Shown piece by piece: positions 474-55,521 of a stretch of DNA of 55,521 bases. Under the pieces are notes generated by a model. That model was not told the origin of the DNA, did no database searches, and was given only the letters and a program-made list of their open reading frames with translations. Where the stretch lies: contig PS015098.1 of the NCBI GenBank assembly GCA_048213135.1, forward strand, positions 58,967 through 114,487, in the 5' to 3' direction. A program made the translations under genes and the position numbers. Origin of the DNA: Reclinomonas americana ATCC 50394 (Eukaryota). Within the stretch, counting starts at the first letter, position 1. Every line of letters begins with the position of its first letter.

Positions 474-629
474 TGGGCGTCCAGTGGGCGTGCGGAGAGT
501 GTGCGGGTTGTCCACGGGTGGCGACATGGCCACATCATAAACTCCTGCTGCGTGCCCCTCAAATCTCCCCAGCTCCTTGGCATGCAACGGAGGTGCGAGC
601 TCGTACTCTTCTTCCTCCTCCGCCTGCAT
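474..629 (-). CDS. WD40-repeat protein, putative first exon (gene continues toward the window edge)
   Basis: ATG at 629; MQAEEEEEYELAPPLHAKELGRFEGHAAGVYDVAMSP resembles a WD40 repeat start (GH...VYDVAMSP). Putative donor GTTGAGT at 473. Downstream exons could not be traced. Confidence 0.45.
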
Positions 630-683
630 CACCCCCGCTCACAAGAAAAGAAAACAACAAGAAACAAAATGGAATTATTCATT

Positions 684-3041
684 TTAGGCGGGAAATATTG
701 TTTTGTCCGCAACACCAACCTGTTTGCATGTGTACAAAAGTGCGTCAGTTTCCTCTCTCCCCACAGTCCCTTTCCCTCGACACTCTCGCTTACCAATCGA
801 CCTGCATCGTGCTCGTGATGAGCGCTGGCGGGCACCATCCACCAGCGCAGCTGCAAGTGGTGTCCGGGATCGACCTCGCACTTGTCGCAATCTGCGTCAC
901 CGCAGACGGCGGCGTGGTGGTGCGGCGAGGCGCAGTCGTAGATGTCGACGGGGTGTAGAAGGCAGTCGACATCGATGTGGCGGTCGTGCATCGTCTGCAG
1001 GACCACGCTTTCGGCGGTGGCCTCGGCGCGCAACAGGTTGCGAGCCTCGTTCACCGACATCCACCAGCGCAGGTGATCTTGTGCCGGCTCCAGCTCGAAC
1101 TCGGGTACGCTCTCCTCGCTGAAATCCACCGGAGCACCGGCACGCAGCAGTCGCGTGCCCTCCTCCAGTTGCTTCCTCAATACGGCCTCGTACTTGGTTT
1201 CGTCGTCGTCGCCGTCTTGTGGTGGAGGAGCGGCAGGGCTCGCATGCGTCCTCAGCGAGGCGGCGGAAAACGAGGCAAGGAACTTGCGTTCGGGGAAGCG
1301 CGTCACGCGCAGCTTGTGCTTGAAGCTGCCGGTGCGACCGTCGGGCCGATACTTGGGCAGCAGTCGCCAACCGTGATCGGCCACGGCCTCGATTGCACTC
1401 AGCGCATACTCGATCTCCGCGTCGGACATGGTGAAGGGGAAGCTGACACGCGTGTAGCCGGGGCGTAGCGGTTCGATCGACCGTTCGGCCAAGCTGTGCT
1501 CGATGAGACGCGCGCTGCGATCGGTGATGCCCAGCAGCCGCATGCCGTACGGACCGGCGCACATGCAGCCGCCACGCGACTGAATGCCGAATACGTCGTT
1601 GAGCAGGGCGCAGACGAACTGGTAATGCAGAAAGTGTCCGCTGTCGTCGGGGGCGTGCACGAGAAACGTGAAAATCGGGGCGCGCTTGGCATGACCGCGG
1701 TCGAGTGCCGGTCCAAAGCACTGGAGGCGCCGATGTGCACGCAGTCGTGCGTCGACCAGCTGTGCCACATGCTGCTCGCGTGCCTCCATGGCCGCATACC
1801 CGCCCGGCAGCGTCGACAGCAGGCGGAACACAAGACCGCAGCGAATGGCACCGATAATGTCGGGTGTGCCGGCCTCCTCGCGCTCCTCCGCGTGCCGCAA
1901 ATACCGATGCATGTGGCTCGTCACGAAGAACACAGTGCCGCCGCCCGTGACGGCCGATGGTCGGTCATCGTGACCCGCAAAGAGACGGCGCTTCATGATA
2001 CTGTGTGTCCACGGAGTGAGTGTCGGCGACCGAGTGGCGATGATGAACAGAGCATCAACGCAACAGCAAGCCGGGTGTGCCGGGTCCGCCAATCAATTTG
2101 TGGGGCGAAATGAACACCGCGTCCTTGTGCAGCAGCGACGGGTTCGCTGCCACCTGCTGCTCCAAGTGAATGCCGAGCTGCTCGCCGTGGTCGTGGCGTG
2201 ACGGGTGCGACGACATGACAGTGGGGTTCATGTCGATCTGCAAGTGCGGCGCGCCACATGCATAGTCGAACACGGCCAGCGCCCCTGCGGCGTGCAACTG
2301 CGCCGCCAGTGCATCAACATCGGCACACACGCCCGTCACATTGGAGCAGGCCGAGAAGGCGCCGATCTTGAGTGGGCGATCGGCAAAGTGCTCCAGTAAT
2401 CGCTGCAGCACTTCACGATCCACATTGCCGTGCTCATCCTCCGCCACCTCGACCACATCACAGCCGGCCGCCTCACGGTACGGCAGCTCGTTGCTGTGGT
2501 GCTCGTGCGGTCCCACAAACACAATCGCCCGCTCGCCCGGCGTCGCTGTCTCCAAGTGCAGCCCGAGAATGTGGACCAGGCGATTGCTGGCCCCCGTGCA
2601 ACCGCTGCCGACAAAGACCACACAGTCGGCACTCGAATTCGCATCAATGTCCGCGTGTGGATCGTCCAGGTGCGCGTTCACTGCACTGCCGATGAGCTGG
2701 CGGGCCTCCTCCCGAAAACATGTCGACTGCGATGATGATGCAGAGATTCGATCAGAAGATTCGAACATATCACATGATCACAACTCACACACACACACAC
2801 GTACCTGCAAGCCAAAGTGCGAGGCCGTGGTGTGCGTGTTGCCATACGTCGGCAGCACATGCTCGCGCAGGTGGTCCTCCACGACACGCAGCGGTCGTCC
2901 CGACGCCGTCCAGTCCATGTACAAGTGCATCCGTGAGTGCCCGAGCGCTGCGTGTGGTGACGGAATGGAGCCGGCGTGGCCGATCACTGAACGCCGAAGC
3001 GCTGCATAGGCCTCTGTGGGGTCACTCTGCGCCTCCTCCAT
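684..3041 (-). CDS. PLP-dependent class V aminotransferase / cysteine desulfurase-like protein (4 exons)
   Basis: Motifs YMDWTASGR, YGNTHT, GPHEHHSN, SACSNVTG, FDYA, SPHKLIGGPGTPG (PLP lysine), GGGTVFFV, EEAGTPDI, RGGCMCAGPYG, RPGYTRVS. Introns 2727-2804, 2001-2064 and about 720-793; last exon VGVADKTIFPA then TAA. Confidence 0.9.
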
Positions 3042-3239
3042 TCTCAGACAAAGGAAATACAGGTAACAAACTGACGCGGGACTTCACGACAATGAACGGC
3101 GAGGCCATCTCTTTCTCTCTCTCTCTCACACACACACAGAGCATCTCTGTTAATGCGCTCGCACTGCGACCCTCTCACGGCCTGCACGCGACAGCTCCTC
3201 GGGCGAAGCTTGAAGTTTTGTTGAGACAAGCGCGCGGTG

Positions 3240-4770
3240 TCAAACAGCGTAGCCACCGGAATCGCAGTGCGAAAGAACCGTGCCGACAATGCACGTGATC
3301 ACCAGCACGACGCTGCGCGGGAGGTGTAAGCGGTGGAAGCGAAAAGGAATGGACGAGGTACACACGAACCCTCCGGACAAGCCCAGAAGGAGCGATCCAG
3401 TGGCGATCTGCGGTGCAAGGGGTGAGAAGGAGGAGGGGGAGGGGGAGGAGGAGGAGGAGGAGNNNNNNNNNNNNNNNNNNNNNNNNNNNNNNNNNNNNNN
3501 NNNNNNNNNNNNNNNNNNNNNNNNNNNNNNNNNNNNNNNNNNNNNNNNNNNNNNNNNNNNNNNNNNNNNNNNNNNNNNNNNNNNNNNNNNNNNNNNNNNN
3601 NNNNNNNNNNNNNNNNNNNNNNNNNNNNNNNNNNNNNNNNNNNNNNNNNNNNNNNNNNNNNNNNNNNNNNNNNNNNNNNNNNNNNNNNNNNNNNNNNNNN
3701 NNNNNNNNNNNNNNNNNNNNNNNNNNNNNNNNNNNNNNNNNNNNNNNNNNNNNNNNNNNNNNNNNNNNNNNNNNNNNNNNNNNNNNNNNNNNNNNNNNNN
3801 NNNNNNNNNNNNNNNNNNNNNNNNNNNNNNNNNNNNNNNNNNNNNNNNNNNNNNNNNNNNNNNNNNNNNNNNNNNNNNNNNNNNNNNNNNNNNNNNNNNN
3901 NNNNNNNNNNNNNNNNNNNNNNNNNNNNNNNNNNNNNNNNNNNNNNNNNNNNNNNNNNNNNNNNNNNNNNNNNNNNNNNNNNNNNNNNNNNNNNNNNNNN
4001 NNNNNNNNNNNNNNNNNNNNNNNNNNNNNNNNNNNNNNNNNNNNNNNNNNNNNNNNNNNNNNNNNNNNNNNNNNNNNNNNNNNNNNNNNNNNNNNNNNNN
4101 NNNNNNNNNNNNNNNNNNNNNNNNNNNNNNNNNNNNNNNNNNNNNNNNNNNNNNNNNNNNNNNNNNNNNNNNNNNNNNNNNNNNNNNNNNNNNNNNNNNN
4201 NNNNNNNNNNNNNNNNNNNNNNNNNNNNNNNNNNNNNNNNNNNNNNNNNNNNNNNNNNNNNNNNNNNNNNNNNNNNNNNNNNNNNNNNNNNNNNNNNNNN
4301 NNNNNNNNNNNNNNNNNNNNNNNNNNNNNNNNNNNNNNNNNNNNNNNNNNNNNNNNNNNNNNNNNNNNNNNNNNNNNNNNNNNNNNNNNNNNNNNNNNNN
4401 NNNNNNNNNNNNNNNNNNNNNNNNNNNNNNNNNNNNNNNNNNNNNNNAATGGGGAGGAGAAGAAGAAGAAGGAGGAGGAGGAAGAGGAGAAGAGACAAGA
4501 CAGTTAGAAAGACAGCATGCGAGAATGTAACGAGAGACAGCTGGCAATGCGGTTCTGTAGACTGCGCAGGCCAGTACGCTGAGCATGAGACCAAGCGCGG
4601 CGAAGAACGCCATGACACACAGTCTGTGTGTGTGAGAGAGAGCGCGTGAGTGACAGACACTCTGAGCGAACGAGAAGTTGTTGTCACACGAAACACTGTG
4701 CACGCAGAAATGAGCAAATGAGCGAGCGAATGACACAGCGAGGGAGAGAAGACGCACAGGCGACACGCAT
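3240..4770 (-). CDS. VPS55: Vps55/LEPROT-family four-TM protein; middle exons lost in the N-gap
   Basis: N-terminus MRVALLCVMAFFAALGLMLSVLACAVY aligns by eye to Vps55/LEPROT TM1. C-terminal exons (3407 to 3240) give IATGSLLLGLSGGVVLVITCIVG...GYAV-stop, matching TM4. Confidence 0.7.
3463..4447. other. Assembly gap (N run)
   Basis: Run of N bases inside VPS55. Confidence 0.99.
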
Positions 4771-4870
4771 GCTTGCGCTCTTGATGTTGTACGTCGCGAC
4801 GTGTTGTGAGAGCAATCACTTTGTCCTGTGTGTCCTCTTTTGTTCCATTGTGTTTCATTGTTTGTTTTTG

Positions 4871-7118
4871 ATGCTTGCGGCGACGAGTGCGGTGGAGTGG
4901 ACGCGCACAGAGAGCATTCATGAGTTCTCGCAGTCGCTGACGTCGGCGGTGGTGAAGCAGAGTGATGTGGCGTTGGATGTCTCATGTTGAGTGAGAGAGA
5001 GAAGGAGGAGGGAAGGGAGAGTGTGTGTGAGAGAGAGAGAGAGAGGAGGAGTGGGGGAGTGAGAGTGAGAGAGAGGGGAGAGGAAAGCGCATTTGCTTAT
5101 CTGTGAGATCGGTCGACGTTGACACACACACACACACACATACACACACACATGCATTTGCACACAGAGGGAGGGACTTGCCATCGTTCTTCTTGTGATC
5201 GCATGCTCTCGCCGATCTGCCTCTGTCTCTTCTCCCTCCCTCTCTCATTCATCGCCCTTCTCCACCCTCTCTGCACACGCACAGAGGGAGAGACCTGCTG
5301 TCATTCATCTGTGATCGTGTCGCCTTCACTCTCTGTATTCTCAGTTCTCTCCATCATGCGATCACTCATTCTCCCATTTCTTGTACATGCTGAGTGTTCC
5401 ATGTCTCTGGCTCGTCTCGTCGACCTTCTCTCTCATGCGATTACTCCTCCTCATTCTCTTTCTCGTCGCCCTTCTTTATCCCACCTGATCACTCATTCTC
5501 TCCTTTCCTTGCACTTTCTGTGTTCTCCGTATCACACTGCATCTCTGTCTCACTCCATTCTTTGTCTCTCGGTTCTCATCGCCCTTCTCTCTCAGATCAT
5601 TCCCCTCGTCTCCTCGTGCACTTTATGAGTTCTGTTTCTCTCTTTCATCGCCCTTTTCTCGTCGCCCTTCTATATCCTTCCTGCTCCTTCCTTTCCTTGC
5701 TTCATGTGTTCTCCGTATCTCCGTGTCTCTGTGTGCATCTCTGTCTGAACTCCATTCTTTGTCTCTCTCGGTTCTCATCGCCCTTCTCTCACAGATCACT
5801 CCACTCCTTTCCTTTGCACATTATGAGTTCTGTTTCTCTCTTTCATCACTCTTTTCTCGTCGCCCTTCTCTATCTCCTGTGATCATTCATTCTCTCCTTT
5901 CCTTGCACATTGTGATTTTTCTCGTTCATCCTCTCCTTTCCTATCACTTTCAGTGTTCCCTTCCCCTCTCCCACTCTCCTTCCCTCTCACTCCCCCTTCC
6001 CTCCCCCTTCCCCCCTTCCTCCCCTCCTCCTCACTCCCCCCCTTTCCTTCCCTTCCCCTCTCTGCAGTCCTTCGTCTCGGCGGCAACATCCGTCACTTTG
6101 TGTTTGCGCTGCACGGCGGCGGCGGCCTCAAGCAGCTCACCGCCCTCGACGTGTCGGGCAACGGGATCGAGGAGGCGGATTTCGAGACGGTGGCGTCGGC
6201 GCTGCGCGGTCGCCACAATCGCCTGTGTCACTTGAATGCACAATGTTGCGTCTCCTCCCTGCCTCCGCCCTTTTCCCTTCCATTCCACTCACTCCCACTA
6301 CCCCAGTCAACCCGATTGGCCCATCGGCGACCATTGCGGCGCTGGTGCGCGACTGTCACTGGCTGGAGACGCTGAATCTGTCGTCGTGTTCGATTGGTGA
6401 CGGCGGCATGGCGGCGATTGCCGAGCATATGGCCTTGCCGCACTGTCGCCTGGTGACGCTGCTGGTGGCCACCAATGGCATCACACAGTTTGGCGTGTGG
6501 CGCCTGACGGCGGCGCTGACCAAGGCCGGCGGCAGTGCCACTTTGCGCACGCTGCACATTGGCGGCAATCCGATCGGCAGCGACGGTCTCTCCTTCATGG
6601 CCGACTACCTCCGAGGTCGGAACGACAGCGCTCCGCCGCCGTCGGTGACGGCACTTAACCTCGACGCCATTGGCAGCGGCCGCCAGGGTCACTTTAGTCT
6701 TGCCTTTGCGCTGCGCACGAACACGAGCCTAACGGCGCTGTCGGTGCGCGACAATGGGATGCGAGACGACGCGGTGCGCTCGCTGCTGGACGCACTGGAA
6801 CGCAATCGCACGCTCGCCACGCTGTCGGTCGGTGGCGCCAACGATTTCAGCGCGGTGCGGGCGTACACGATGCGCGTGCTGCGCGCCAACTACTCGCTGA
6901 CGTCGCTGGATGTGGAGCCGGAGACGCACGATCCGCTGGTGGTGGAGCTACTCGAGTCGAATCGCGAGTTGCGCGAGGTGCAGTACGCCCTCTACGTGCT
7001 GGTGGGCGACGACTGGGGTCACGTGTCGGTGTCGTCGCCCATTGGCGCGCGTGTGCTGGACGTGGTGCTGCGGCACACGTTGTGGGCGCGGCGCAGGCGT
7101 GCGGCGCGTGATGTGTGA
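4871..7118 (+). CDS. Ribonuclease-inhibitor-like leucine-rich repeat protein (3 exons)
   Basis: Exons 4871-4985, 6068-6244 and 6307-7118 join in frame. Repeats LTALDVSGNGI, LETLNLSSCSIGDGG, LRTLHIGGNPIGSDG, LTALSVRDNGMRDDA. Confidence 0.88.
5400..5910. repeat. Degenerate intronic tandem repeat, period about 198 nt, pyrimidine-rich
   Basis: ttatgagttctgtttctctctttcatc at 5623 and 5821; ctcggttctcatcgcccttctctc also repeated. Confidence 0.8.
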
Positions 7119-7355: not shown

Positions 7356-10245
7356 TCAGCCGGGCAACTCCTCCACAGCCGGCAGCGCGCGCGGCACAAA
7401 ACCCGTTGCCGCCAGCCAGTCGCGCACTCTTTGCGTTGCAATCTGCAGATCCAGTCCGTTGAAGAGCGGGTGCTGCAGCAGCTGCTCTGCCGTGGGTCGA
7501 TCGTCGGGGCGGCGCTGCATGCACAAGTTGACGAATTCGCACAGTGTGGGATCGTAGCCCTGCGACGGGTCAAGCGTCGGAATCTCCTCCTCGATCTTGG
7601 CCAGCGCACCCCACTCGTCGTGCGGAATGCTATGTAGTGTATATGAGAATGGGGACGGAGGAGTGGCGGCAGTGGCAAAAGCGTGACGCACGGTGGGTAG
7701 GCGGCGGCAAGGTAGAATGTCGTCACACCGAGGCTCCACACATCGGCCTTTTGGTCGTGCTCGTACGGCTCTTGCAGTTGCTCCGGCTGTGCACGCACAC
7801 GCTTGTCAGACGAGTAACACCTCGACTGACCATCGTGCAGACGCAACTGCCATGTAGCCGGGGGTGCCGATAAAGGTCCTCGCCTTGGCGCCGGCGTCCA
7901 GTGGTCGCGACGTGTTGAAATCGGTGACCTTGACCTCACCGGCAGTGTTCACGAGAATGTTGGCGGGGCGGATGTCGCGGTGCAGCACACCGCGTTGGTG
8001 AATGTTGTAAATGCCGTTGGTCACCTGAGCAACAAGAGGGATCAATAAGGAACCAGAGAGAGGGAGAGAGAGAGAGGGAGGGGGGAGAGAGAGAGAGGAG
8101 GGAGGGAGAGAGGAGAGAGAGAGCGAGGAGGAGAATAGGCGAGTGTTGTAGAGGAGGTGGCGAGGTCGGGACACGAGACGAGGAGGAGGTCGGTAGTTCG
8201 ACGACGTAGTTCGACNNNNNNNNNNNNNNNNNNNNNNNNNNNNNNNNNNNNNNNNNNNNNNNNNNNNNNNNNNNNNNNNNNNNNNNNNNNNNNNNNNNNN
8301 NNNNNNNNNNNNNNNNNNNNNNNNNNNNNNNNNNNNNNNNNNNNNNNNNNNNNNNNNNNNNNNNNNNNNNNNNNNNNNNNNNNNNNNNNNNNNNNNNNNN
8401 NNNNNNNNNNNNNNNNNNNNNNNNNNNNNNNNNNNNNNNNNNNNNNNNNGTACGATTCGGAAGTAGTTCGAAGTCGTAAGTAGTAGAGACGTTAGAGAGT
8501 AGTAGAGAGTAGGGAGAGGGAGCGAGGGAGAGAGGGAGCGAGGAGTGAGAGAGAGGGGGGATAGAGGAGAGAGAGAGGCTGAGGGCGAAATATGCAGCGT
8601 TGTGAGAGTGGCATGGGGCACAGCAGAGAGTCGGATTGCACGAGTTGTCACACACGGAGGGTCACCGACAACAAATGACTGTTGGATGCAAGCAATGACA
8701 CGAGCAGGAAGAGTCACGCAGCGCCCGCAAATACGGATAACTGCAACAAGAAGGCGACTTCCAAAGAACAGCGCTCGGAGTAGCACGGAACAATGCAGAG
8801 AGTCGAAAGCACGAGCAGGTTACGCAGCACGTAGTACGCAGAGTACCGCAGCGAACAGAACACTGTGGAAGCAAGAAGAGAACAGCAGGAGACTCACAAA
8901 GCATCAACGCCGAGAGTGTCGTGAGGAACCAGAAACACAGAACACGACTTACTACAACAGCAATAGAGTCAAAAGCACGAGCGATCACGGAACACGCAAG
9001 CGCAGCAAATTGCAGAGAACAGAAGACTCGGAGGCAAAAAGAGAGACAGGAAGCACCAAACAATATCGCGAAGAACAGCAGACAGCTGGATGCACGCATC
9101 ACAGAAACAGCAGAGTCGGAATTAAGAGCAATCACGCATCACGCAGCACGCAGAGTGTCACGGAGAACAGCACACTGTTGGAAGCAAGAAGAGAGACCGG
9201 AAGCACCAAAAATATCGAGGAGAACAGCAGACAGCTGGATGCACGCATCACAGAACACAGCAGAGAAAGCACGATCACGGCGATCACGGAACACGCAAAA
9301 ACCCAGCAAATTGCAAAACTGAAGACTGTTGGAAGCAAGACGAGAGATAGGAAGCACCAAACAATATCGAAGAAGAGAGCCACGATCGCGACGTGTAATA
9401 ACTCATTCGCACCTGCACAATAATGGCCGCCAACACATCCAGCGGCAAGCCGACGGCTTCACCAGCACGATCCTGCAGGGCGTTGAAGTGATAGTCCAGC
9501 GAGCGGCCTGCGCACATACCATCAGCACCGCAGAAGGAGAGCGGGTGTGCGCGCGCGCAATACAAACCATCCATGTACTCGAGCACGTAATGCACAAAGC
9601 TGGAAACAGAGTCAGTCTCGCGAGCATGCAACGCAAGACACTGCGTCACACACGCACGTTCCATCGGTGACGTAGCCGTAGCAGCCAATGACATTGTCAA
9701 TGGTCTCCTGTGAGCGGAGAAATCAGACTCTCAGCTGCCCCCTTTCATCGCATTCCCCTCCCATTCCACTCGCACCATGATGGGCTGCACGACCAGCGAC
9801 CTGACGCTCCCGTCCATGCTCTCTGTCTGCTCCACAGTGAGCAGGAGGATTGTTGCCTCTCTCTCTCACTCTCACACAGAACCTTGATGGCGACTGGAGT
9901 CCGCGTTGGGACATGCATGTAGAGACACACAGCAGCAAAGGCGCCTTCGCCGAGGTTGGCAGGCTCGCCGGGGAACACCTCCGCGAGGTCACTGAATGTG
10001 TGTGTGTGTGTGTGTGAGGAAAAAGAGAAGAGCTGTCAGGTGGACAACAACAACAACACAATGACACAACTCCATGTTAATGGCACCAGCGCCGATCTTT
10101 TCGGAGAGTGAGAAGGTGAGTGGGTGCAGGGAGAGAGCGTGTGTAAGAGGAGCAAGGGAAGACCTGAAGAGCCATGGCTTGTGCGCGCAACGAAATGAAC
10201 TGTATTGTGCGGGACGCGTGACGTTCTCTCCTCCTTTGTGCTCAA
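7356..10245 (-). CDS. Ser/Thr protein kinase, STE7/MAP2K-like, atypical motifs; N-terminus truncated by a gap
   Basis: Spliced motifs LGEGAFAAV, VAIK, LEYMDGRSLD, HRDIRPANILVN, VKVTDFN, ARTFIGTPGYMAPE, ADVWSLG, RPTAEQLLQHP; TGA at 7356-7358. Confidence 0.88.
8216..8449. other. Assembly gap (N run)
   Basis: Run of N bases inside the long kinase intron. Confidence 0.99.
8700..9390. repeat. Degenerate intronic tandem repeat, period about 150 nt
   Basis: gagaga..ggaagcaccaaa.aatatcg at about 9041, 9191 and 9342; cagacagctggatgcacgcatcacagaa occurs twice. Confidence 0.8.
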
Positions 10246-20315: not shown

Positions 20316-23300
20316 TCAGTCCTCCTTCCTCTCGAGCTCCGGGTCCGTGTCGACAAGTTCCACGACTCGCGATCGCCGTCTCCTCGCGGCTGGAATTGAT
20401 GCGGGCGACGTTGGCGATGCCAGTGCTGGTGGCGGCAGTGGAGGAGGAGGAGCCGGTCCGGGTCCAGCCAGTGGGAGTACATGTTCGGGCATCGCTGCTC
20501 GAATGGATGGCAGTTGTGGGCGGAAACGACGATCTGCTCCGGTGGGAGCCGTCATGCGTTCCGACGTGACGCGTCGCGCGACGTTGGCGTCGGGCGACAT
20601 TGGCGTCGTGTTGGCGTCGGCAGCAGCTGCGGCGGCGGTGGTGCCATCGGCAAATGGCGATGCGGCATTGCCAGCAACGCCTGGTGAAGGGGTCTCGAGG
20701 CCGCCGTTGACCGTGTTGCGCCGTCGGTGACGAAGAATGCCATCGCCACCACTGGAGGATGAAGAGGACTCTGGGGGTGGCGACAAGCACTGCAATTCCT
20801 CTTCGCCCACTGGCGGAGTGGCCGACTGCGGAGGCGTAGCCACTTGCAGCATGCGCATGCGGGTCACTGCCGCCAAGAATGTCGACGTCTCGTTTTGTGT
20901 ACTTGCTGTCGGGCCGAGGCCGAAGCGCAGCTGGAGACGAGTTGAGGCCTGTTGCATCAACTTGCGTCGCTGTTCACGACGCATCCAACCGCGCACCGCC
21001 TCCTGCAGCCTCAACGCCGCCAACAGTTCCGCCACTTGCACCTTTTGCGGACGACGGCGCTTCCTTCGTCGTCGATCACCGCCGTCCAAATGTCCATCAT
21101 CATCGTCGTCGTGGCCGCCGTTCTCGTCATCATCGTCGTCGTCATTGTAATCATTGTCGTCACTGGGCGGATCGTCGAAATCGTCCTCCTCCTCATCGTT
21201 GCCACCTGCTTGATCACCACCGTTCGCCTTCTTCTCGTGTTTTCGTTTCTGCCGCCGCGAGCGGTCGTCGAAAGCTGTGGGGAAGCGCGATGACCATTGT
21301 TCCATGATGCTGTGCTTGATTCCCGGTGGCAGTGCTCTGCAGATGGAAAGAGTGGGTAAGCAACATGATTGTGTGCACAAAAAGACATTCGCTTACACGC
21401 AACTTGGCTTCCACTTCGCACGCGCGAGCGGTGAGGGCCGGCAGAACGTCGCGGTAGTGCGCTGTGCCACTCCAGTCGTAGATCTCGACCTCGGCCAAGT
21501 ATCTCAAGGCACGGGCGCGCGTGGCATCCCTTCCCACACCCAGTGGTGGATCGACTTGCTGCAGAATGGTCGGGAGTGCAGTCTGCAATGCGTGACACGC
21601 GGTTAGCAAACCACGCGACATTGTCGAGAGACAACATTGGCGAGGACGAACCACTGGCACATAACCCGTGCTCTCCGGGTCGTGATGTGCCCACGCATCC
21701 AGGAATCTGCGACAGCCGTGGAGTGAGATTGTGCTCTTAACAGTAGTTGCTGGCAGGAAGCATCATGCGCAACTGCTGAATGTTGTCGTCGGAGACGGCC
21801 TCCTCTTCTTCCTTGAGCGACAGCGTCGAAAAATTTTCCAGCATGACCTGCGGTGTGGTGGCAACAGTGAGCGAAGGCTAGAGAGAAAGGGCATTCTTGT
21901 TTCCACTGCAGAAACGCACCGCGATGAACAAGTTGAGCATCACAAACGTGACGAGGAACACAAACATCGAAAAGTAGACGGAAGTCAGGACTGTCACGCA
22001 GTTGGTGCTGTCGGCCGGGCAGGCTGTGCGGCGAAGAGTCACACGGTGAGAAGCAGCAATCATCCCACACGCCTCCACGCAGCCGGTGGTACGCACGGAA
22101 GTATGGATGGCTGAGCTCCTCCATGACGTATGGCCAGCTTTCGCCAGTCGAGGCGCGCAGGAGCAGACGGAGTGCGTTGGGAAAGTTCTGGAAGTTGGCG
22201 TGCCGATTGTAGAGAATGCCGAGCGGCACATCCGCAAACAGGTTGACTCCCACGACGGCGAACACGAAGAAGAGGAGCGCCAGAATCGAGCCAATGTTGG
22301 CAAGCGACGGCAGCGACAGGTACATGGTGTGGATCTGCCGCTGCACACCCCGCAGACTGCGGAACAGTCGCATCACCCGGAACACACGGAAGATGCGGAA
22401 CACTGTCGAGCCGACTCCGACACTCACATACAGGCCTGGTACAAGGCGTCAGGAAGAGTGCCACATGCTTTACAGTCGGCCACACGCACTCACCAATGAC
22501 CGACACGATGCACACGAAAAAGTCAAACACATTCCATCCGCTCTTGAAGTACCGTCGCAGTCCGTTGCCGTACACCTTGATGCAGGCCTCGGCGACAAAC
22601 ACCCACGTGACCACCTGTGCATGGTCGACAAGGCGGCGATGAGAGGAATGTAAGAGCGGGGTACTAGTGAGTGCAGTCACGCACTTGTTCCAGCACGTCA
22701 AACACATCAGTCATGGCCTTGGGCATGTCGCGGTACACCAACACCATGCTCAGCACGTTGACGACAATCACAGCCATGAGGGCGTAATCAAAGGGTCGCG
22801 AGGCGGCGATGTTGTAGGCTAGCATGCGTGATTTGCCAAAGAATGTTGGTGCGTACGTCGGTGGAGCGGGCACCGGGCTCTCCGATAGGAGACGGCGTTG
22901 AGCAGCTGCAGAAAGCGCAGAAGAGAGTTTAACATTCTGCGAGAAATACTCTATTCCGTCCTGCTGCTGAGCTCACGCACCGACCCAGCGCTGCTGCTCT
23001 GGAGTGAGGAATACAGCGGCACCCTCCGACTGCTTCTTGCGCTTGTAGTAGTTGTCGATGAGCACGCCGATAAACCTGTCAACAGCTAGTTGAGTACGAA
23101 TTCCACAGCCATGAATGAGTGCAACTTGCTGCTGCTGCACACGCACATATTGAGGGTCAGGTACACGCCAATGACGATAAAGCCGACAAAGTACAGCGCC
23201 TGCCATGGATTGCTGCCGCGAACAGGTTGCATGTCCACCTGAGAAGAGAGCGTTTAGTTTAGATAGTGAAAAGAAGCATGGCAGGAAATCGGCAACGGCG

Positions 23301-26300
23301 ACGCACCCCCACAGAATCGCGCCCCTTATTCATAATGTCCACCCATCCCTCGGTGGTGGAAATCTCAAAGAGCACTCGCATGGCGTTGACGAAATTGTCA
23401 AAGTTGGTCGCCGGCACAGTCCAGTCGCGGTCGCTGAGGTTGCCTGAGTCGTCAAAGTACTGTCCAACGCAGTCGGCCTTTCTGTCAACACCTGTTGATA
23501 AAATCATTGTGAGCAACAGTGGCGCGTGTGGCATTCTACCAAGAGTGCGCAACTAGAGTCGTTGCAGGAGCCGAATGTACCGGCATACAGTTGCACACCG
23601 AGGATACCGTACACCACCCACAGGAGCGACACCACCAACACGACATTGACCATTGGAGGAATGGCACGGAATAGTGCGTCGACCACGATCTGTGCAAGTG
23701 CACCGCCGGATGAGACGGTCGTCGGTTCACGCAGAAAAAAAACTTGTGTGTGTGCGGTAGCTCTTACCTTGAGACTGCGGATCCGATTGACAAAGCGGAG
23801 CGGCCGAATGGCACGAATGATGCGAATCATACCGATCCACGAGATTGTGTGATTGTACAGTACCACACCAACAACAGAGGCCTGATGGATGCCGTGTTAG
23901 TGAATGGGAGGAGAATGCTGATTGGTGGATGTACACACGCGCGCGTCACAAACCACCACAATGACAAAGTCGAAAATGTTCCACAAGGAGCGCATGTAGG
24001 CATTCTTGTGAAAGATGACTCCGTACGCCACCCACTTGCACAGCATCTCCGCCACGAACCCCGCCGTGATGATGGTATTCATCGAGTACACCACCAGCCA
24101 CATGGTCGTGTTCACCGGCTCGTTTGGGTGCTCAATGGCCAGTACCGCGCACGACCATCCGATCAACAACAAGACACTCCACTCAAACGCGCGATGCTCC
24201 ACAATCTCTGGTCTCGGAAACGGATAATTCAGTCTTGCTGTCGGCTCATGGAGGGGAAGGCGAGGAGCACACATGTAACTCACCGCGCATGCGTTGAACC
24301 AGTCGCGACGAGTCGGGCAGAATGCACATGGGCCACGACCGCGAAGGCAGTCTGCGCCACCAACTCTGTGCTACCTTCTGCTCACCGCCATCCGCGGTTC
24401 CAGGTTGAGGTGCTTGCGGTTTTGTTTCGTCGCCGTTCTGCTGAGGTTCACCACCGACGGGTGCGTTTGTCCGTGTTGGTGACTGCAAGTCGTCGACACT
24501 GTAGTCGATTAGTGGGTCAGCCACAAGAAGATGAGCTACCTACACTGAACATTCTTCTCCAAACCACTCACCTGACAAGCACAGAGACGCCGCGCACGTG
24601 GTGCGGCCTGGTCTTCTTTCCCGTTGCCTCAATGTCTGATGGGCGGTGAGTCAGGTTTTGCAGAATAATTTAGAGAGCCAACAGAACACACCAACGTCTA
24701 CGGCCAGCCCTAAATCATCATCATCGTCAGCTTCCGTCTCCTTTTCTGGCTTATCATCGTCGTCGCCAAAGGAAAAGTGTTGCAGCAGAATGGCGATGAA
24801 GAGATTCAACAGAATATCTGAGGTGCACGAGAGTGAGCGATAACACGAGAGTGGTGTGTAGTGTGGAGTGGGACGCAACAATTGCCGATGACAAACACGA
24901 AAACAAAGTAGACGGCAGCCCAGTCACCGGTTCCGGCCATGCAATCCCACAGCACATTGACCCAGTTCTCCAAGGTAAGAACCTATAATGTGTGTGAGCG
25001 TCACAGAAGTGAGTGAAGAAACAATGAAGGATAAGCCCAAGCACCTGGAAGATCGTGAGCATGGCCTGCAAAGCAGAAAGAGTCAGTGAAAATGAAAGAA
25101 GGGCAGGAGGATTGATCTCGAGTGTCTCGCGCACCTGGAAAAATGTGTCAAAGTTGGAGCGCGGAATCGGGTCATCGTCGTCGGGGAAGTACAGTTTGCC
25201 ACCAAAGAGTTGCATGCCGAGCAGAGCCGACACAAAAATGAAGAGCACCAGCAGAAGCATCAATGTGGAGACGCCTCGAATGCTCTCGCGCAGCATGCGG
25301 AGCACGCGTCGCAGAGAGTCCCACGATCTGCACGGCACGCCGAGGGTGAATGGGAGGCGGAATGGAAGAGAAATGTCATGTGCAACGCAACCTGGCCAGC
25401 TTGAACACGCGAAGCAAGCGCAGCGAACGCAGTGCCGTGAGGCCCGTTGAACCAGGTGTGTAAGCGTCGACAAAGCCGAGTGTCACAATGATGAAGTCGA
25501 AAATGTTGAAGACCACCGTGAAATACTTGCATGGAGTCTGTGCGTACAGCAGCAGCACCATCTCCGAGGCGAAAAAGTACAACAGCACCAGGTTGATCAG
25601 ATCTGCAGGGTAGAGGCAGGGAAGGTCAATACTCACATGAATACACCTCTCGCAGCATAAAGAGGACGACGCACCGCAAACATCGCTCATTGTCTTGGAC
25701 ATGCCGTAGTACTGAATTCCGAGAATGATGGTGTTGAAGACAATGACGGCGGCCATAATGCCCTGCCACACATTCGTCTGGGAGATACGCATCAACCAGA
25801 GCCGCGAGCGCAGCAGCAATGTGCGGAAGACGCCGGTCGCTGTGGCGGCCGAGGGGGCCGCTTTGATATTGTTCTCCAGCTCCTGCATGAAAATGACCTC
25901 CTTGGCCACCTCGGGCTCCGGCGCCATGGAACCGCGCCGACCACGCACATGCTCGGCGGCCTGCGGAGAGCCTGTGGAGTGGTCCCACCCGTCGTCGTCC
26001 TCGTTCGGATCGATGAACGATCCGCGACGCCCGTTGACTTTGCCCAAGGACTGAGCCAGCATGCTGCCGAATGCTCGCTGTCCACCAAAGACGCCGCCGC
26101 CGCCGCCCACAAATGACCGAGCTGGAGCCGGACGCACCAGTAGGCCACTGACAGAGGCCGACATTGTGGGCGGATCTCCGAGCTTGTACGGCTGTGCTCC
26201 TTCCACAGTCTCCACTCCAGTTCCCACACCTGCTGCTGCTGGCGCTGCTGCTGCTGCTGAATCACCCACCGTCGACAAACGCCGCAGCACCGAAACGCTT

Positions 26301-29186
26301 GGTCGATTCTCGTCGCCATCCTCGCTGCCGTCATCGTCAGCATTCTCGGCATCCGAGTTCTCGCCAGAGTATGGCGACGACGACGCTGACGATGACTCTG
26401 TCGAGGAACCGCTGCTCTCCTCCAGCGAGCCGTCGCATACTACAAGACTCGGTCGGTGCTCGGTGAACTTCCACTTCGCCATGGCCTTGTGCACCTCAAT
26501 GCCCGACTCGGCATTGATGACCATGGATGAGCCAGCCACCGTGTTAATGTCGGCGCCCATCTTGGAGAGCTCCAGCGTGGCGGCGCTATCCGTCTTGGCA
26601 CGCTCCTTGGAGACCTTCATGAAGGTCTTGGTGATGATGACGATGATGAGGTTGGCCAGGAACCAGGCGCCAAAGAACACCATTGGAATAAAGTACCAGA
26701 TGGCTTGGGCGTTATAGGCGTCCATGGTTGCCGATAGAATGTCGGTCCAGCTCTCCATTGTTACACCCTGCAGGTGGGCAGAAGGGTTATATAATCAGCA
26801 CGGGTCTGGTGCATCGTAGATGTGCGTACGTGTAGATGCTCACCGACATGACACACAGCGCCGCCGAGGCGATATTGTCGAAGCTGGTCTTGCCGCGATT
26901 CGGATTGTTGCCGCCGACCATGCACACTAGGCCGTCGGGGCACTGTAGGCCGCCGTTGAAAGAGCAGCCGTCCGTGGCGACCGTGCTCTGCGTCATTGTG
27001 CCGTCGTCGGCCACCTCGAAGCACCGCTGCGAGAGTGTGCCCTTGTAGAGCTGCACGCCGACCACCGAGAACACGAGAAAGTAGACGAAGAAGAGCAGCA
27101 GGGTGTCGGCCAGCGCCGGCAGCGTGCGGAGAATGGTGGTGACGAGCATTTGCATTTCGCGGAGATTGGAGATGGCGCGCAGCGGGCGCAGGAGACGCAG
27201 CGCACGCACGCCGCTCACGTTGGAGCCGACGAAGATGTTGAGGTAGCTGTGGAGCAGGGAAAGGGGGGAGAATGAGATAGGGGGAAGGAGAGGAAGGGAG
27301 GGGAGGGAGGGAAGGAGGAGAAGGGAGGGAAGGGGAGGGAGGGAAGGGAGGTAAGGGAGGGGAAGGGAGAAGAGAGAGAAAAGAGGGAAGAGAGGGAAGA
27401 GAGGGAAGAGAGGGAAGAGAGGGAAGAGAGAGGAGGGAGGGAACGGAAAGCCGTAAAGGGGCTGGAAGAAAAAGGAGGAATCGAAAGATGAGAGAAGATC
27501 TCGATGTGGAGGGTGCGACAAACAGCGAAGAAGTGAAGAACGAAGCAAAAAAACGAGAGAAGCACATGGAGAAGTAGGGCCACGAGGTCAAGAAGCAGAA
27601 GGGGATGGGGGGTGGAGAGAGAAGCAGACACGATGTAGGTGAGCTTGGTAAGATACGAAAATGAGAGAGACATAAAGCGACAATGACAACAGGGAGGCAC
27701 AGGAAAGTCAGAAAAGAGATGGAAGATCTGCGAGAGCACAATGAATACAGGAGTTGCAAAGAGTGTGGGCAGCGACAGAGTGCACGAGACGAGAAAGAAG
27801 GGACTTGGAAATTGACAACACTCATCAGAGGACTGAGGTGCTGAGAACGCTTCCTCTGTTTTTTCCTGTATGTTTGCGTGTGTGCGTGTCTGTCTGACTG
27901 CTTGTGCGACTGTCATTCTACCTCTTATTCTCTTGTTATCTCTGCTTCTCTCTCTTTTCCTCATTGTACTCTTCCGCATCGCAGCGCACCTTCCCGCCAC
28001 GACGATGAAGTCGAGCCAATTCCATCCCGATTTGAAGTATCCCACAAATCCCAATCCAATCCACTTGCACAGCATTTCCACAGTGAAGATGGCAGTGAAG
28101 CCGTAGTCGACAAAGTTGAGGTAGTAATTGCGTCCCTCCTCCGGCCCGGTCAGCGGGTCAAACATCGCCAATGCGATACTGTTCAGCAGTACCACGATCA
28201 GAATGGTGGTCTCGAAGGCTCTGTGGGAAGAGGAAGAGAAAGTGTGTGTGTGAGAGAGAGAGAATGGATCATGGAGCAAACGAATCGAGACACCACACAG
28301 CAATCACCTGTGATTGATCATGTCGTACATGAAGCGATGCAGGATCTGCCAGCAATTCAACCGCACAGATGGGATGCCATTGTAGGGACGAGCCACTCGG
28401 CACTCCTTCTCGATCCGCTTGAGCCGCTCCAGCTCCGCCAGCGACGTGTTGACCGGTACGAGAGACTGCACAAAATTGACGGCGGCACGACGAATGAAAG
28501 AGCCGCGTCGCCTTGGCACCTTGTGCAGCACTGCACCGCTAGTCGACACATCGCCTCCTTCCACGTCGGCAGCCGCCACCACGCTCGCCCTCCGCCCGCC
28601 ACCATTCCCCAACAGATCCGGAACACCGTCACCGCCAGCAAACGACACCAGCGTGCTCCGTCGCCGACCCGGCAGGTTCGGCAACGCAAATCGCAAGTGC
28701 TGCTGCAAGTGCTGATGTGCCTCGCCCTCTAATGGTGGTGGCAGCAGTGGAGGTGGTGGTGAGGGGGAGGGGGCCAGCAGTGCTCTGGTTATTGGTGACG
28801 CTGTGAGGCCGCTGTCGTGACCGTCGCCCACCACAATGCTGGGATTGTCATTGATGGTCCTCTGTTGGGGAGTGGACGGGATGCGGCGAAAGTGTGGTCG
28901 CGCGGGTGACTCGGTGGACGGCGGTCGAGGCACCGGCTGTGTGGAAAGGAGAGAGGTGAGAGTCGGAAAGAGGGGGATTGATTGAATGCAACGTGCACTG
29001 GAGGGGAGAAGAAGACAAGTCGTGCACATATAAACAAGCAGCAATGCGCAGGAAGCAAGAGTTGCACGTACATACAGATACTGAGAGAAGGAGACGGGAA
29101 GAGAGAGAGAGAGGAGGGAGAGCGACCATGTGCGTTTGCGTAAACACCCTCTTGGGACTCACCGCACATTCCCCGGTGTCGCTCAT
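20316..29186 (-). CDS. Four-domain voltage-gated Ca2+ channel alpha subunit (Cav/Nav superfamily, EEEE filter)
   Basis: S4 segments RALRLLRPLR, RSLRLLRVFKLAR, RIIRAIRPLR, RIFRVFRVMRLFR. Pore loops TMESW, TLENW, TTEGW, TGESW. S6 GNYILLNLFIAIL and MLNLFIAVMLENF. C-terminal FLDAWAHHDPESTGYV (EF-like) and IQ-like LQEAVRGWMRR. First exon (MSDTGECA) is less certain. Confidence 0.95.
27250..27470. repeat. Polypurine tract with 10-nt tandem repeat (AGAGGGAAGA)n, intronic
   Basis: Visible in sequence, inside a long channel intron. Confidence 0.8.
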
Positions 29187-49461: not shown

Positions 49462-52089
49462 CTCGTCGGGCATTGTTGCTGCGCTCACCAACCTGCTGCG
49501 CGACCGCAACACGCGACTGAGGCGGCGGGCTGTGAGCTCTCTCGGAGAACTGTTGTTCTACGTGGCGACACAGCAGCTGGACGGAAATCCAGAGGTATGT
49601 ATGTTGTGTTTGTCTCGTGTTCATTCGACATGTGATGCCTGATTCGCTTGTCATTCTCGCGTCGCGCAGGACGATGCATGGGATGTCACCAATGCCACCA
49701 TCAATGGCCTCATCGCCTGCCTCAAGTCCTCGGAGGACGAAACCGTACAACACTATGCGTGCAAGACGATTGAGAATGTGCGTCACTTCGCTTTCTGTCA
49801 CCATTAGATTGTTTTCTCACGTACCCCCCTTTCCAGATTGGCTCGCTGAGTCCGCATTTCAGTCGCCGCTTTGCCACGCCCGAGACGTGCACCTACATGC
49901 TCTCTCTCTTCTACAACACGCCCAATGAGCACCTGCAATTGGCTGCCATCTCCGCCATTGTGCGCTTGTGCCGGCACAGCCGCCAGTTCGCGGATGCGTT
50001 GCTGGAGAAGGACGCTCTCCGCATTCTGCGCACCAGCCTCGAGGATCGCAACACGCGCATTCAGCAGTGTGGCCTGAATGTCATGAATTTGGCGCTCACT
50101 CGCGGCATGCCCGGTCGCCTGCAGAGCGATCTCCTCGACGACAAGAACATTATCAAATCGTTTCGTGTCGTCGCGTTCACTGCAGTGGAATATGCGTTTT
50201 CGTTCACTTACCCGCCTGCGTCTGTGTGCAGGGTGGTGCGATTGTTGGAGTCGTCGACCGCGGTACTGCAAGCCAAGGCCGTTCTCTGCGTCGCGCTGCT
50301 GTCGTGCATCCACACCCCGACGCTGCACATGCTGTGTGAGCTCAAGTTGTGCCTGCTGGCCGACAAGATCCTCAACGTCACCGACGGCTACGTGCAGGAC
50401 TGCTTGGCAGTTGCGGGGTCTCGTGTTGCTGATTGCTGGATAATAGTGCGTGCTGACGCGGTGTATGCGCCCGACAGGTGCTGGTCGACTGCATGAAGTG
50501 CATCGTGCCGCAGATCTTGGCGCAGGTGCACAGCATCCTGGAACGCGTGTTGGCCGATCCGTACGCAGTCGTGTCGTTCAAGGTGCGTTGTGCAAGTGCG
50601 CGTGCTCTGAGTACGTGTGGGGTGCTAAACTTGCGTGTGATGGATGCAGACACAAAGTGATCACTTCTCCATCCTGCTGCACGTGGTCCTGTGCCATGCC
50701 ATGCGTGGAGCGGTGGTGACGAGTGAAGTTGTCGAAACGCTGGCCTCGTTGCGTTGTTCCCTCCCACTCCTTCACGCCATCAGTCACCCTAGGGTTTTCA
50801 CCCGCCCATTCTGCAGTCTGTTGCCATTCATCGAAAATTTGTCGTTCCCTGCGGCCTCTGAGTTCAAGCAGACGCTGCTGTTTGTCATTGAGGCTATATC
50901 GCAGGTGCTATATCCGTTTCTCTCCTTGTGTGCAGATGGCTGTAAGCATGCTGCCGTTCTCAACGTCTTTACTTGAATTCCAGAATGCTGTGTTGCTGGC
51001 CAACGCCAAGAGTGCAATTCTTGGACGCTTGTTGCCGTCGCTCTCCGACTTGCTGCAAACAGAAAATGGCGACGTGCGGTTCTACTGCCTAAAGATCTTT
51101 ACCGACTCGCTGGTGTTTTACTTGCGCGACGAGCGACATTATGACGTTGCGTGATTTCGTCGCCCCCATTCTGTCTTCTCTTTCTCTCCGTCTCATTTCC
51201 TTCTCCGCATCAACAGGCCGCACAACCGGACCACCAGTCCACCAAGGAGATCAATGCACTCATCATCCAGCACCTCTTCTCGCGCTACGCCAAGATTTTG
51301 GAGGACGAAGACCCGATTCCACTGTTTCGTCCACGTGCCTTGTTATTTGTTTTTTTGTATGATTCGAGGCTCATTTGGTGCGCGCAGCTACGGCCTCAAA
51401 CTGATGAGCCACATTGTGGAGTGCAACCCGGCGTTTGTGGCGATTGTGCGCCAGTTGAAACTCGTGCCGCTGCTGTTCCAGTTCTTTGAGTTGCAACATC
51501 GCAACAACAACATTCACAACGTGCGATTGGTGCGCATGATTGTCGAGAGCTCCGAAGTGGAACCGGAGGAGGTCTACAATCTCGGTACGTCCATTGTCAG
51601 CTGTTGCTGTTCGCGCATGCTACTCACTGCGGTATGCAGGCCTGGTCGCGAAACTGAATGCCGTGCTTGCGTACGCTTACGAGAATCTTGTGGACTCGTT
51701 CTACGAGCCGTGCCTCGACATTGTCAGCACCGCGCTCTTCAAGGCCTCCGAGTCGCTAAAGTCGAGTCCACGCAAGGTAGTCGGTCGACAATCATTCTTT
51801 TCCCTGGTGTTGCTGCAGCCTACTCACACGACTGCAGGATGACATTTTGGCGCGCAATGCCGGCTTCACCGAGGGACTGGAGGTGTATGTGTCGCTGCTG
51901 GACCACCTCGACGCGGCAGTCACGGAGAAGAGCGCCTCCACCCTGCAGCTGTGCGCGCAAATGTACGACGGCGTGTGCGACACACTGACCACTATGCGCC
52001 TGCGTGGCGACGGCCCGGCGACGTCGCTGGAGATGCTGACCAAGGTGTTGACGGGCACGGAGCCGACCACATCGCAGACAACACAACGG
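49462..52089 (+). CDS. ULK4: ULK4/RUNKEL C-terminal HEAT/ARM-repeat exons; 3' end lost in a gap
   Basis: RRRAVSSLGELLFYVATQ, EDETVQHYACKTIENI, NGDVRFYCLKIFTD, EDEDPIPLYGLKL; successive short GT-AG introns keep the frame. Confidence 0.85.
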
Positions 52090-52970
52090 GTTGGTTCTTC
52101 TTGTTTTTGTGTACCAGATGGTGGACTGTTCTTGCTCATTCCTGCGTAGCGAGTGCTAAANNNNNNNNNNNNNNNNNNNNGGGGGAAGGATGAGAGAGGA
52201 GAAGGAGAAGGAGAAGGAGAGGGAGAGGGAGAGGGAGAGGGAGAGGAGATGGGGATGGGGATGGGGATGGGGAGGGAGAGGAGAGGAGGAGAAGGGAAGA
52301 GAAGAGAAGAAGAGAAGAGAGGAGAGAGAAGCGGGGAGGGAGAGGTGAAAGAAGAGAATGGCAGCGCGGAGAGATGAGAAAGACAGAGAAGTGCAGGGTG
52401 GAGAGGAGACGAAGAAGACGGGAGAGAGTGGACAGAGAGCGAAGAAGAAAAAGAGAGAGGAGAGAACATAAGAGTGAGAAACGAGAACCAGAGAGGAGAC
52501 ACACAAGAAAAGAGATGATGGGGAAGAGAGGGAGCGCGGGAGAGGAGAGAAAGAGAAACGAGAATCACAGTGTAGACAAAAAGAAAAGAGAGAGAGAGAG
52601 AGAGATAGAGAGCGAGGGGGAGAAAAGAAGAGAGAGTGAAAATGACAAAGAGAGTGGAGATAGAAGAAGAAGTAGAAGAAGAGAGAAAAGAGGAGAGACG
52701 GGGAGAAAATGACAGTGTGATAGAGAAAGAATGAGAAATGAGAACCAGAGGGGAGACAGGAAAGAAAGTGAGCGAGAGAGAGAGAGAAAAGTCAGGGAGA
52801 AAAGACAATGCGAGAGAAGAGAAGGACAAGAATGAGAAGTGCAGGGTGGAACCGAAGAAGAAGACTGGAGACGGGAGAGGGAAGACAGAGAAAGAGAGAA
52901 GAGAACAAGAAGAATGCTGCACAAAGGGGCACAAGATATGATTCATAAGAAGAAATGCCACGAAACAAAC

Positions 52971-54951
<1,981 letters not shown>

Positions 54952-55064
54952 CTACATGCAAAGGAGAGGGGAGGTGAGAGGGGAAGAGAGGAAGAGGGGA
55001 AGAGAGGGAGAGAGACACACACAGAGAGAGAGAGAGAGAGAGCATAACAAACAAGCCAGACACC

Positions 55065-55345
55065 TTCAGGGAGACAGCCACTGAAAGAATAAGAATAAGA
55101 ATGAAGAATGAGATGAAACGGATTTGAAGAGAAGAAAGTTGAGGACGTGAAGCAGCAAGTCAGGCTCACAGAGAGAGAGAGAGAGAGCTTCACAAACACG
55201 CTTGACTGCCTCAAGGGGAGAGCCACTGAGAGAATGAGAAAGAAGAATGCACAACGAACGGATTTAAGAGCTTCACAAACAGGCTTAACACAAGGAGACA
55301 GCCACTGAGAGAATGAGAAAGAAGAATGGAGAATGCGATGAAAAC
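55065..55345. repeat. Degenerate intronic repeat
   Basis: gccactga.agaat(g)agaa at about 55077, 55222 and 55301; aacggatttgaagaga repeated. Confidence 0.7.
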
Positions 55346-55371
55346 GGATTTGAAGAGAACGAAAGGCAACA

Positions 55372-55402
<31 letters not shown>

Positions 55403-55521
55403 AGAGAGAGAGTAGTAAGAAGAGAGTAGAAGAGACTAAAGTTAAACGGTCGTAGACGACGCCGTACGGAAGGGAGACGACCGACGTAGGAAGAAGAAGT
55501 AGAAAGAAAAGAAAGTAAGAC

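Follow-up and report, generated by a model that had tools for sequence, protein, structure and literature searches.

This report concerns the 5′ end of a gene in Reclinomonas americana ATCC 50394 that is likely Vps55-like, where a single T between two short intron-like segments may serve as a complete coding exon. The window analysed is a stretch of 55,521 nucleotides (nt) of contig PS015098.1 (positions 58,967–114,487), and all coordinates below are window positions. On the minus strand, which carries the gene, ATG 4770 is followed in order by a donor, an acceptor, one T at 4695, a second donor and a second acceptor, and finally by the exon that opens the Vps55-like frame (Table 1). An original prediction held that T, T and A, drawn from three exons, combine into one leucine codon. 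All of its coordinates and motifs (ATG 4770, intron A at 4757–4696, T 4695, intron B at 4694–4624) are present on the minus strand, and joining the segments by coordinate reproduces its peptide.

Table 1. Features of the Vps55-like locus, in window coordinates; a slash marks an exon–intron boundary or, within a codon, an exon–exon boundary.
Feature	Position	Strand	Description
Proposed first coding exon	4758..4770	-	ATG 4770-4768 plus 10 bases; ends on T, base 1 of codon 5
Intron A	4696..4757	-	62 nt; donor T/GTGCGT, CTCAT twice, acceptor CACAG
Proposed one-nucleotide exon	4695..4695	-	T, middle base of codon 5 (T/T/A, Leu)
Intron B	4624..4694	-	71 nt; donor T/GTTTCGT (GTT class), CTCAC twice, (CT)n(CA)n microsatellite 3′ end, CACAG
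Next coding exon	4540..4623	-	begins with last base of codon 5; 3′ end uncertain, possibly near 4540
Assembly gap	3463..4447	.	985 N; hides middle of Vps55-like gene
Open frame, coding-like codon usage	3243..3407	-	probably C-terminal part of Vps55-like gene; unverified

The Vps55-like gene

The exon downstream of intron B reads A CTG TGT GTC and then, ten bases in, reaches ATG 4613–4611, an alternative start. The frame opened by this ATG is hydrophobic and encodes the first membrane helix of a Vps55-like domain. Pfam family PF04133 matches 4448–4622 (minus strand) with 19.4 bits (E 0.001), and the best match, for 4520–4622, scores 21.6 bits (E 0.0002). The gathering score of 24.6 is not reached because only an N-terminal fragment is available ahead of the gap, so that just positions 2–28 or 2–45 of the 120 in the profile can be scored. 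Members of the Vps55/LEPROT family are small proteins with four membrane helices.

Searches with the N-terminal piece returned no relatives: phmmer gave 0 matches among 1.84 billion representatives, none of 273 candidate longer proteins matched at E up to 10, PDB sequences yielded 0 matches, and the ESM Atlas held no usable match. Among metagenome loci, 593 pattern matches to the N-terminal exon were obtained and 0 were confirmed; an exact 30-mer of the exon had 0 matches in metagenome contigs. On the far side of the gap, a coding segment at 3249–3461 (minus strand) scores 22.2 bits in the codon model described below, and the open frame at 3243–3407 matched no Pfam family at E up to 10. This presumed C-terminal part includes a 57-nt intron-like stretch (3313–3369, minus strand; G/GTTCGT...CGCAG) which is a multiple of three and free of stops, and which may be coding instead of an intron. 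With this stretch retained, the frame has two hydrophobic stretches with a basic loop between them; with it spliced out, a single long hydrophobic stretch is left.

Intron signals in the window

The intron signals were learned from the window. A codon log-odds model, for which 12 Pfam-supported open frames served as the training set, was used to call coding segments, and frame-compatible GT..AG candidates at 53 same-strand junctions of neighbouring coding segments were resolved by expectation-maximisation. Forty introns, of 45–110 nt and with a weight of at least 0.5, were kept. They have a median length of 66.5 nt. G precedes the donor in 54%, the third position of the intron holds G in 56% and T in 32%, and 87% have a CAG acceptor. 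A branch-like motif, YT[CGA]AY, lies 8–40 nt from the 3′ end in 31 of the 40, as compared with 25% of random coding windows. Leave-one-out total scores span 4.3–18.3 bits from the 10th to the 90th percentile. Introns A and B, at 62 and 71 nt, are in line with these lengths, much as the original prediction held, and both have branch-like motifs as it described, with CTCAT at 23 and 15 nt from the 3′ end of A and CTCAC at 23 and 9 nt from the 3′ end of B. The two are copies neither of each other nor of a repeated intron family.

Several other procedures were abandoned. A flank-score filter for introns was too noisy, Viterbi gene finders without signal models called too few or far too many introns, and an iterated Viterbi version diverged, going from 343 to 606 introns. 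The minus strand at 8740–9430 is C/T/G-rich, with repeated units of about 130 nt, and mimics tandem intron chains in signal scans. These chains were considered as micro-exons and rejected; the repeat is probably non-coding.

Intron A scores well. Its total of 19.0 bits (donor 7.0, acceptor 11.2, length 0.9) exceeds the 90th percentile of the 40 introns. Non-overlapping segments of at least 19 bits number 28 in the sense orientation of gene blocks, 2 in antisense and 2 in intergenic DNA, with 1.8 in composition-matched simulated sequence. We consider it very likely that A is a real intron.

Intron B totals 7.7 bits (donor 2.6, acceptor 4.2), around the 20th percentile of the window introns. The single-matrix score mixes two donor classes, and as a donor-independent test we used an acceptor-plus-length score of at least 7 downstream of the donor. 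Six of 12 sense GTTTCG sites pass this test versus 0 of 9 antisense sites; for all GT dinucleotides, the corresponding figures are 21% and 5%. All six of the passing GTTTCG sites are preceded by C or T. The related GTTGCG behaves similarly, with a good downstream acceptor at 20 of 45 sense and 0 of 18 antisense sites, 19 of the 20 being preceded by a base other than G. GTGCGT donors are frequently preceded by G (7 of 14). GTTTCG is therefore a working donor class in the window, and the donor that had been called shifted, T/GTTTCGT, falls within the class defined as GTT[G/T]CG after a non-G base. The donor at 50160 (C/GTTTCGTGTC, 72-nt intron) is a near copy of that of intron B (T/GTTTCGTGTG). 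Near-identical donors are found at 50160, 41995, 51324 and 37377 on the plus strand and at 52966 and 48127 on the minus strand, and define segments of 50–102 nt when the best-scoring acceptor is taken. The plus strand at 50600–51500 encodes ULK4-type HEAT repeats over at least three exons, and the intron at 51324–51387 there uses a T/GTTTCGT donor.

The acceptor–T–donor junction

What lies between ATG 4770 and the Vps55-like frame is a single base flanked by two complete GT–AG introns with normal signals and sizes (19.0 and 7.7 bits, 62 and 71 nt). To gauge how rare such a junction is, both strands were scanned for an acceptor of at least 4 bits with a strong-class donor 45–110 nt upstream, followed 0–12 nt past the acceptor by a strong-class donor with its own acceptor of at least 4 bits 45–110 nt downstream. 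In the whole window there is one match, the 4695 site. Under an order-2 Markov null, 1-nt gaps arise 3 times per 3 Mb with sense composition and 13 times per 3 Mb with intron-plus-local composition. This corresponds to about 0.0002–0.0007 expected 1-nt cases in the 160 nt upstream of the Vps55 frame, a figure that is optimistic, perhaps several-fold, because the scan thresholds were chosen after the 4695 site had been seen. Counted another way, from the frequency of strong donor hexamers in antisense sequence (106 in 48 kb) multiplied by the chance of an acceptor, the coincidence comes to about 0.0005.

Reading frame and start codons

Eight splice models were translated by coordinate. If donor 4757 is used, ATG 4770 is in frame with the Vps55 domain only when the T is kept; if the T is skipped or B retained, a long reading from ATG 4770 runs out of frame past ATG 4613 and would keep the real protein from being made. 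The earlier claim that removal of 4757–4624 as one intron shifts the frame is borne out by these translations. As for other exon-2 lengths that would restore the frame, there is a single further GT, which leaves a 35-nt intron with a weak donor. Inclusion of the T is required for the frame only given both the ATG 4770 start and donor 4757; a start at ATG 4613, or splicing from a donor at 4753, escapes the requirement.

Stop codons do not discriminate among the splice models, because the strand is C/T-rich and open in all frames; on the minus strand, all frames are free of stops up to 5096. Nor does codon usage: B, read in frame (4694–4614), has +0.10 bits per codon, where introns have -0.09 ± 0.27 and strong coding segments +0.31. 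ATG 4770 has an A at -3. Further ATGs occur upstream on the minus strand at 4848, 4858, 4917, 4921, 4985 and 5092, and ATG 4770 is the first in the message only if transcription starts downstream of 4848. The ATG at 4985 is in the Vps55 frame; ATG 4613 follows 372 nt further downstream, and no stop interrupts the unspliced frame over that distance. Most likely, this frame is a by-product of the C/T-rich strand and not a 124-residue extension.

Weighing the alternatives

Taken together, the strength of intron A, the use of the GTTTCG donor class, the rarity of the junction and the logic of the frame suggest that the T at 4695 is probably a coding one-base exon of the Vps55-like gene, as the original prediction proposed. 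Its weaker side is intron B, which is not significant by signal score. Segments of at least 7.7 bits number 242 in sense, 145 in antisense and 266 in simulated sequence, such that B taken alone is indistinguishable from background. We regard the splicing of B as plausible and not as proven, because its donor belongs to a real class but its acceptor-plus-length score, 5.1, falls short of the 7 reached by the other GTTTCG introns, and its 3′ end consists of a (CT)n(CA)n microsatellite of a kind common across the window and in nearby intergenic DNA. These points weigh against a one-base exon, as do several others: the scan thresholds were set with the site in view, the name Vps55-like comes from a sub-threshold Pfam match to an N-terminal fragment, the leucine codon TTA is unusual at about 73% GC in third codon positions, and three further in-frame paths exist, all via the weak GTCTTC donor at 4753. 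The draft assembly is also gapped, with 11 N runs in the window and one of them inside the gene. Finally, ATG 4613 is itself a credible start, with G at -3 and G at +4, and a protein begun there still has a 19-residue first helix.

This last point leads to the alternative that deserves most attention, namely that ATG 4613 is the start codon and no 1-nt coding exon exists. The sequence upstream would then be promoter or 5′ untranslated region, with A an intron in the 5′ untranslated region or a chance look-alike, B a C/T- and C/A-rich leader, and ATG 4770 either outside the transcript or the start of an upstream open reading frame. The favourable context of ATG 4613 fits this proposal, and so does the non-significant signal of B, whose microsatellite recurs window-wide, including at 5021–5039 just upstream. 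ATGs are not depleted further upstream either, with five between 4985 and 4848. The Pfam match is barely changed by the choice of start. In the alignment to PF04133, Met 4613 occupies position 4 and the Cys two codons before it position 2, from which it follows that the profile begins just after the proposed leucine codon. The claim that the length of the N-terminus fits Vps55/LEPROT proteins thus finds minimal support: the profile does start two to three residues before Met 4613, but the residues upstream of that Met add only 0.6 bits (18.8 versus 19.4), which speaks for the shorter protein. The longer N-terminus begun at ATG 4770 would supply an Arg before the first helix; Vps55 proteins have a short tail with a basic residue at this place.

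Other evidence is harder to reconcile with a start at ATG 4613. It is very improbable that A matches by chance; about 0.02 segments of at least 19 bits are expected in 160 nt, because 2 occur in roughly 7.3 kb of intergenic DNA, both strands included. If A is spliced, ATG 4770 is in the message and has a good context (A at -3). Without splicing of B and inclusion of the T, it then opens a long out-of-frame reading over ATG 4613. The donor 1 nt past the acceptor of A, together with its partner acceptor 10 nt before ATG 4613, would also have to be a coincidence, at a chance of about 0.001 or less. Given a real intron A, the choice is between a one-base exon and the conjunction of a leader intron, an overlapping out-of-frame upstream open reading frame and a coincidental donor one base past an acceptor; overlapping upstream frames of this kind are themselves disfavoured. 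On balance, we think it unlikely that ATG 4613 is the start and that the T is non-coding.

Translation could also begin at ATG 4770 and keep its frame through the GTCTTC donor at 4753, which makes exon 1 17 nt long. This takes three forms: a 130-nt intron to 4624; a 58-nt intron to 4696, with 4695–4624 coding; or the same with a 6-nt exon at 4695–4690 followed by a donor at 4689. Each of the three preserves the frame and meets no stop, and the segment 4753–4696 totals 11.6 bits. GTCTTC shows a sense bias (21 sense versus 9 antisense sites), with a good acceptor downstream of 7 of the 21. Moreover, the codon usage of 4694–4614 is indistinguishable from weak coding. Yet the donor itself has a score of -0.1 bits, and the 7.0-bit consensus donor found 4 nt upstream of it should be used in preference; the 130-nt version totals -3.8 bits. 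Reading B as coding adds a stretch of 27 residues, rich in Cys, Ser and His, before the first helix, and such a stretch is ill-suited to the small Vps55 family. We judge use of donor 4753 to be very improbable. Less probable still is an artefact of the draft assembly, in which a one-base error near the border of exon 1 and its intron, or at the junction, gives a single intron or a different exon structure the look of needing a 1-nt exon. The N runs lend this idea some credence. A single intron (4757–4624) would be 134 nt long, twice the usual size and at a cost of 8.3 bits for length; a full acceptor–T–donor junction with branch motifs on both sides would be a coincidence; and the T and its neighbours form no long homopolymer.

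A possible splicing route

If the T at 4695 is indeed a coding exon, transcription would start upstream of 4770 and translation of the Vps55-like protein would begin at ATG 4770, its first 14 coding bases consisting of the 13 at 4770–4758 and the T. The two short introns could each be recognised separately, by intron definition. They would most likely be removed in succession, because a one-base exon has no room for the complex at the acceptor of A and the complex at the donor of B together. In the first splice the T would be joined to one neighbour, and it would then form the end of that exon in the second. Removal of A first would leave the donor of B preceded by exon 1 plus the T; removal of B first would leave the acceptor of A in front of the T plus the next exon. 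Either order is possible. As the middle base of the leucine codon, the T would set the frame for the whole protein. Skipping it would give an unproductive message or a protein begun at Met 4613, and a role for this choice as a switch, along the lines of the two transcript forms of non-vascular plants, is speculation.

Comparison with known one-base exons

One-base exons are established, and plants splice them accurately (PMC8831610, PMC4674806). Plants have a 1-nt microexon in VPS55 itself (cluster 2 of Yu et al. 2022), which the published account lists for Arabidopsis AT3G11530.1x as validated by reverse-transcription PCR (RT-PCR) (PMC8831610). According to the same account, the microexon is near the N-terminus, among the first 13 codons and either inside the Vps55 motif or 5 residues away from it; where it is left unannotated, 13 N-terminal residues and one predicted membrane helix are lost; and transcripts both with and without it are found in non-vascular plants (PMC8831610). 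A 1-nt exon with support from RNA sequencing (RNA-seq) is described for Zygnema Vps55, Zci_4861 (PMC11096116). In what the plant papers report of the distribution, none of 45 modelled plant microexon clusters, that of VPS55 included, is present in Chlorophyta, and microexons are viewed as having evolved along the plant lineage.

The Reclinomonas locus resembles plant VPS55 in its gene family, here Vps55-like, and in the placement of a single base between GT–AG introns at the N-terminal edge of the domain. In both, omission of the base yields models that begin at a downstream Met, with a loss of 13 residues in Arabidopsis and 8 here. The positions are compatible, each being a few residues at most from where the Vps55 domain begins; the T is one residue before position 1 of PF04133. 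There are differences, as well. The donor after the microexon is GTTTCGT here and a conserved GTRAGT in plants, and the present case comes from a host that is not a land plant and is a prediction from sequence. We think it improbable, more so than a start at ATG 4613, that T 4695 is the same one-base exon as in plants, inherited from an ancestor far older than the green plants. Were it so, this would be among the oldest and most conserved micro-exons, which would contradict the invention during plant terrestrialisation suggested by the plant papers, and Vps55 isoforms with and without the T (full-length versus N-truncated) would represent an ancient regulatory switch.

Two further systems offer useful parallels. 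Arabidopsis APC11 has a constitutive single-nucleotide exon, documented in Guo and Liu (2015) with green fluorescent protein (GFP) fusions and RT-PCR, and the discussion there favours intron definition, the two introns being removed one at a time (PMC4674806). As in APC11, one base needed for the frame lies between two ordinary introns at our locus, and we propose the same stepwise mechanism; the gene is a different one, and APC11 was established experimentally while ours is an inference. The one-nucleotide exon of Fusarium CYP621A, as presented by Nelson and Syed (2026, PMC12940212), is anchored by a motif and draws on 20 orthologues and SRA reads. There, too, the exon is the middle base of a codon and was deduced from frame logic. 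Unlike the conserved motif that anchors CYP621A, the codon affected here lies in an unconserved N-terminal tail. The ratchet points of recursive splicing are not known to leave any base behind. Our junction is like such sites, as they are described in PMC4674806, in that an acceptor adjoins a donor and two segments are removed stepwise; it is unlike them in that one base would stay and in that each segment is a short intron in its own right instead of a portion of a long one.

In plants a one-base exon has a low prior, as we found two validated gene families in print. In the literature we searched, spliceosomal 1-nt exons are limited to plants, streptophyte algae and fungi, a mitochondrial one is known from placozoans, and no protist case appears; microexons of VPS55 are described from plants or streptophyte algae only. 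If confirmed, the T at 4695 would be a protist one-base exon, in the family to which one of plants' two conserved one-base exons belongs. It would allow a test of whether the N-terminal architecture of VPS55 is ancient or arose twice, and would provide a case for studying how a spliceosome working by intron definition deals with an exon that is too short to be bound. There is also a warning for annotation, in that a gene finder would start such a gene at the downstream Met or return a frameshifted model.

Other genes in the window

A KATNAL2 (katanin p60 A-like 2) gene occupies 52182–55520 on the minus strand. Its AAA exon (53348–53911) is 80–84% identical to chytrid, vertebrate and metagenome proteins and 78% identical to a Goniomonas protein. 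Among the KATNAL2-type matches, at about 80% identity, there is no green-plant protein; plants and streptophyte algae are represented among the matches listed only by Apium and Closterium entries, long AAA proteins with 53–57% identity. KATNAL2 is associated with cilia, and the organism is presumably flagellated. An aminotransferase class-V gene lies at 629–3105 on the minus strand; its relatives often carry a fused PF01171 (TtcA-type ATP-binding) domain, and its best named matches are from Ectocarpus (51%) and Aphanomyces (42%). The matches of these two genes argue against a land plant and do not place the lineage. Finally, the minus strand at 21200–28300 bears a large multi-exon gene for a voltage-gated cation channel, with several Ion_trans segments and the GPHH/IQ-associated motif of L-type calcium channels.

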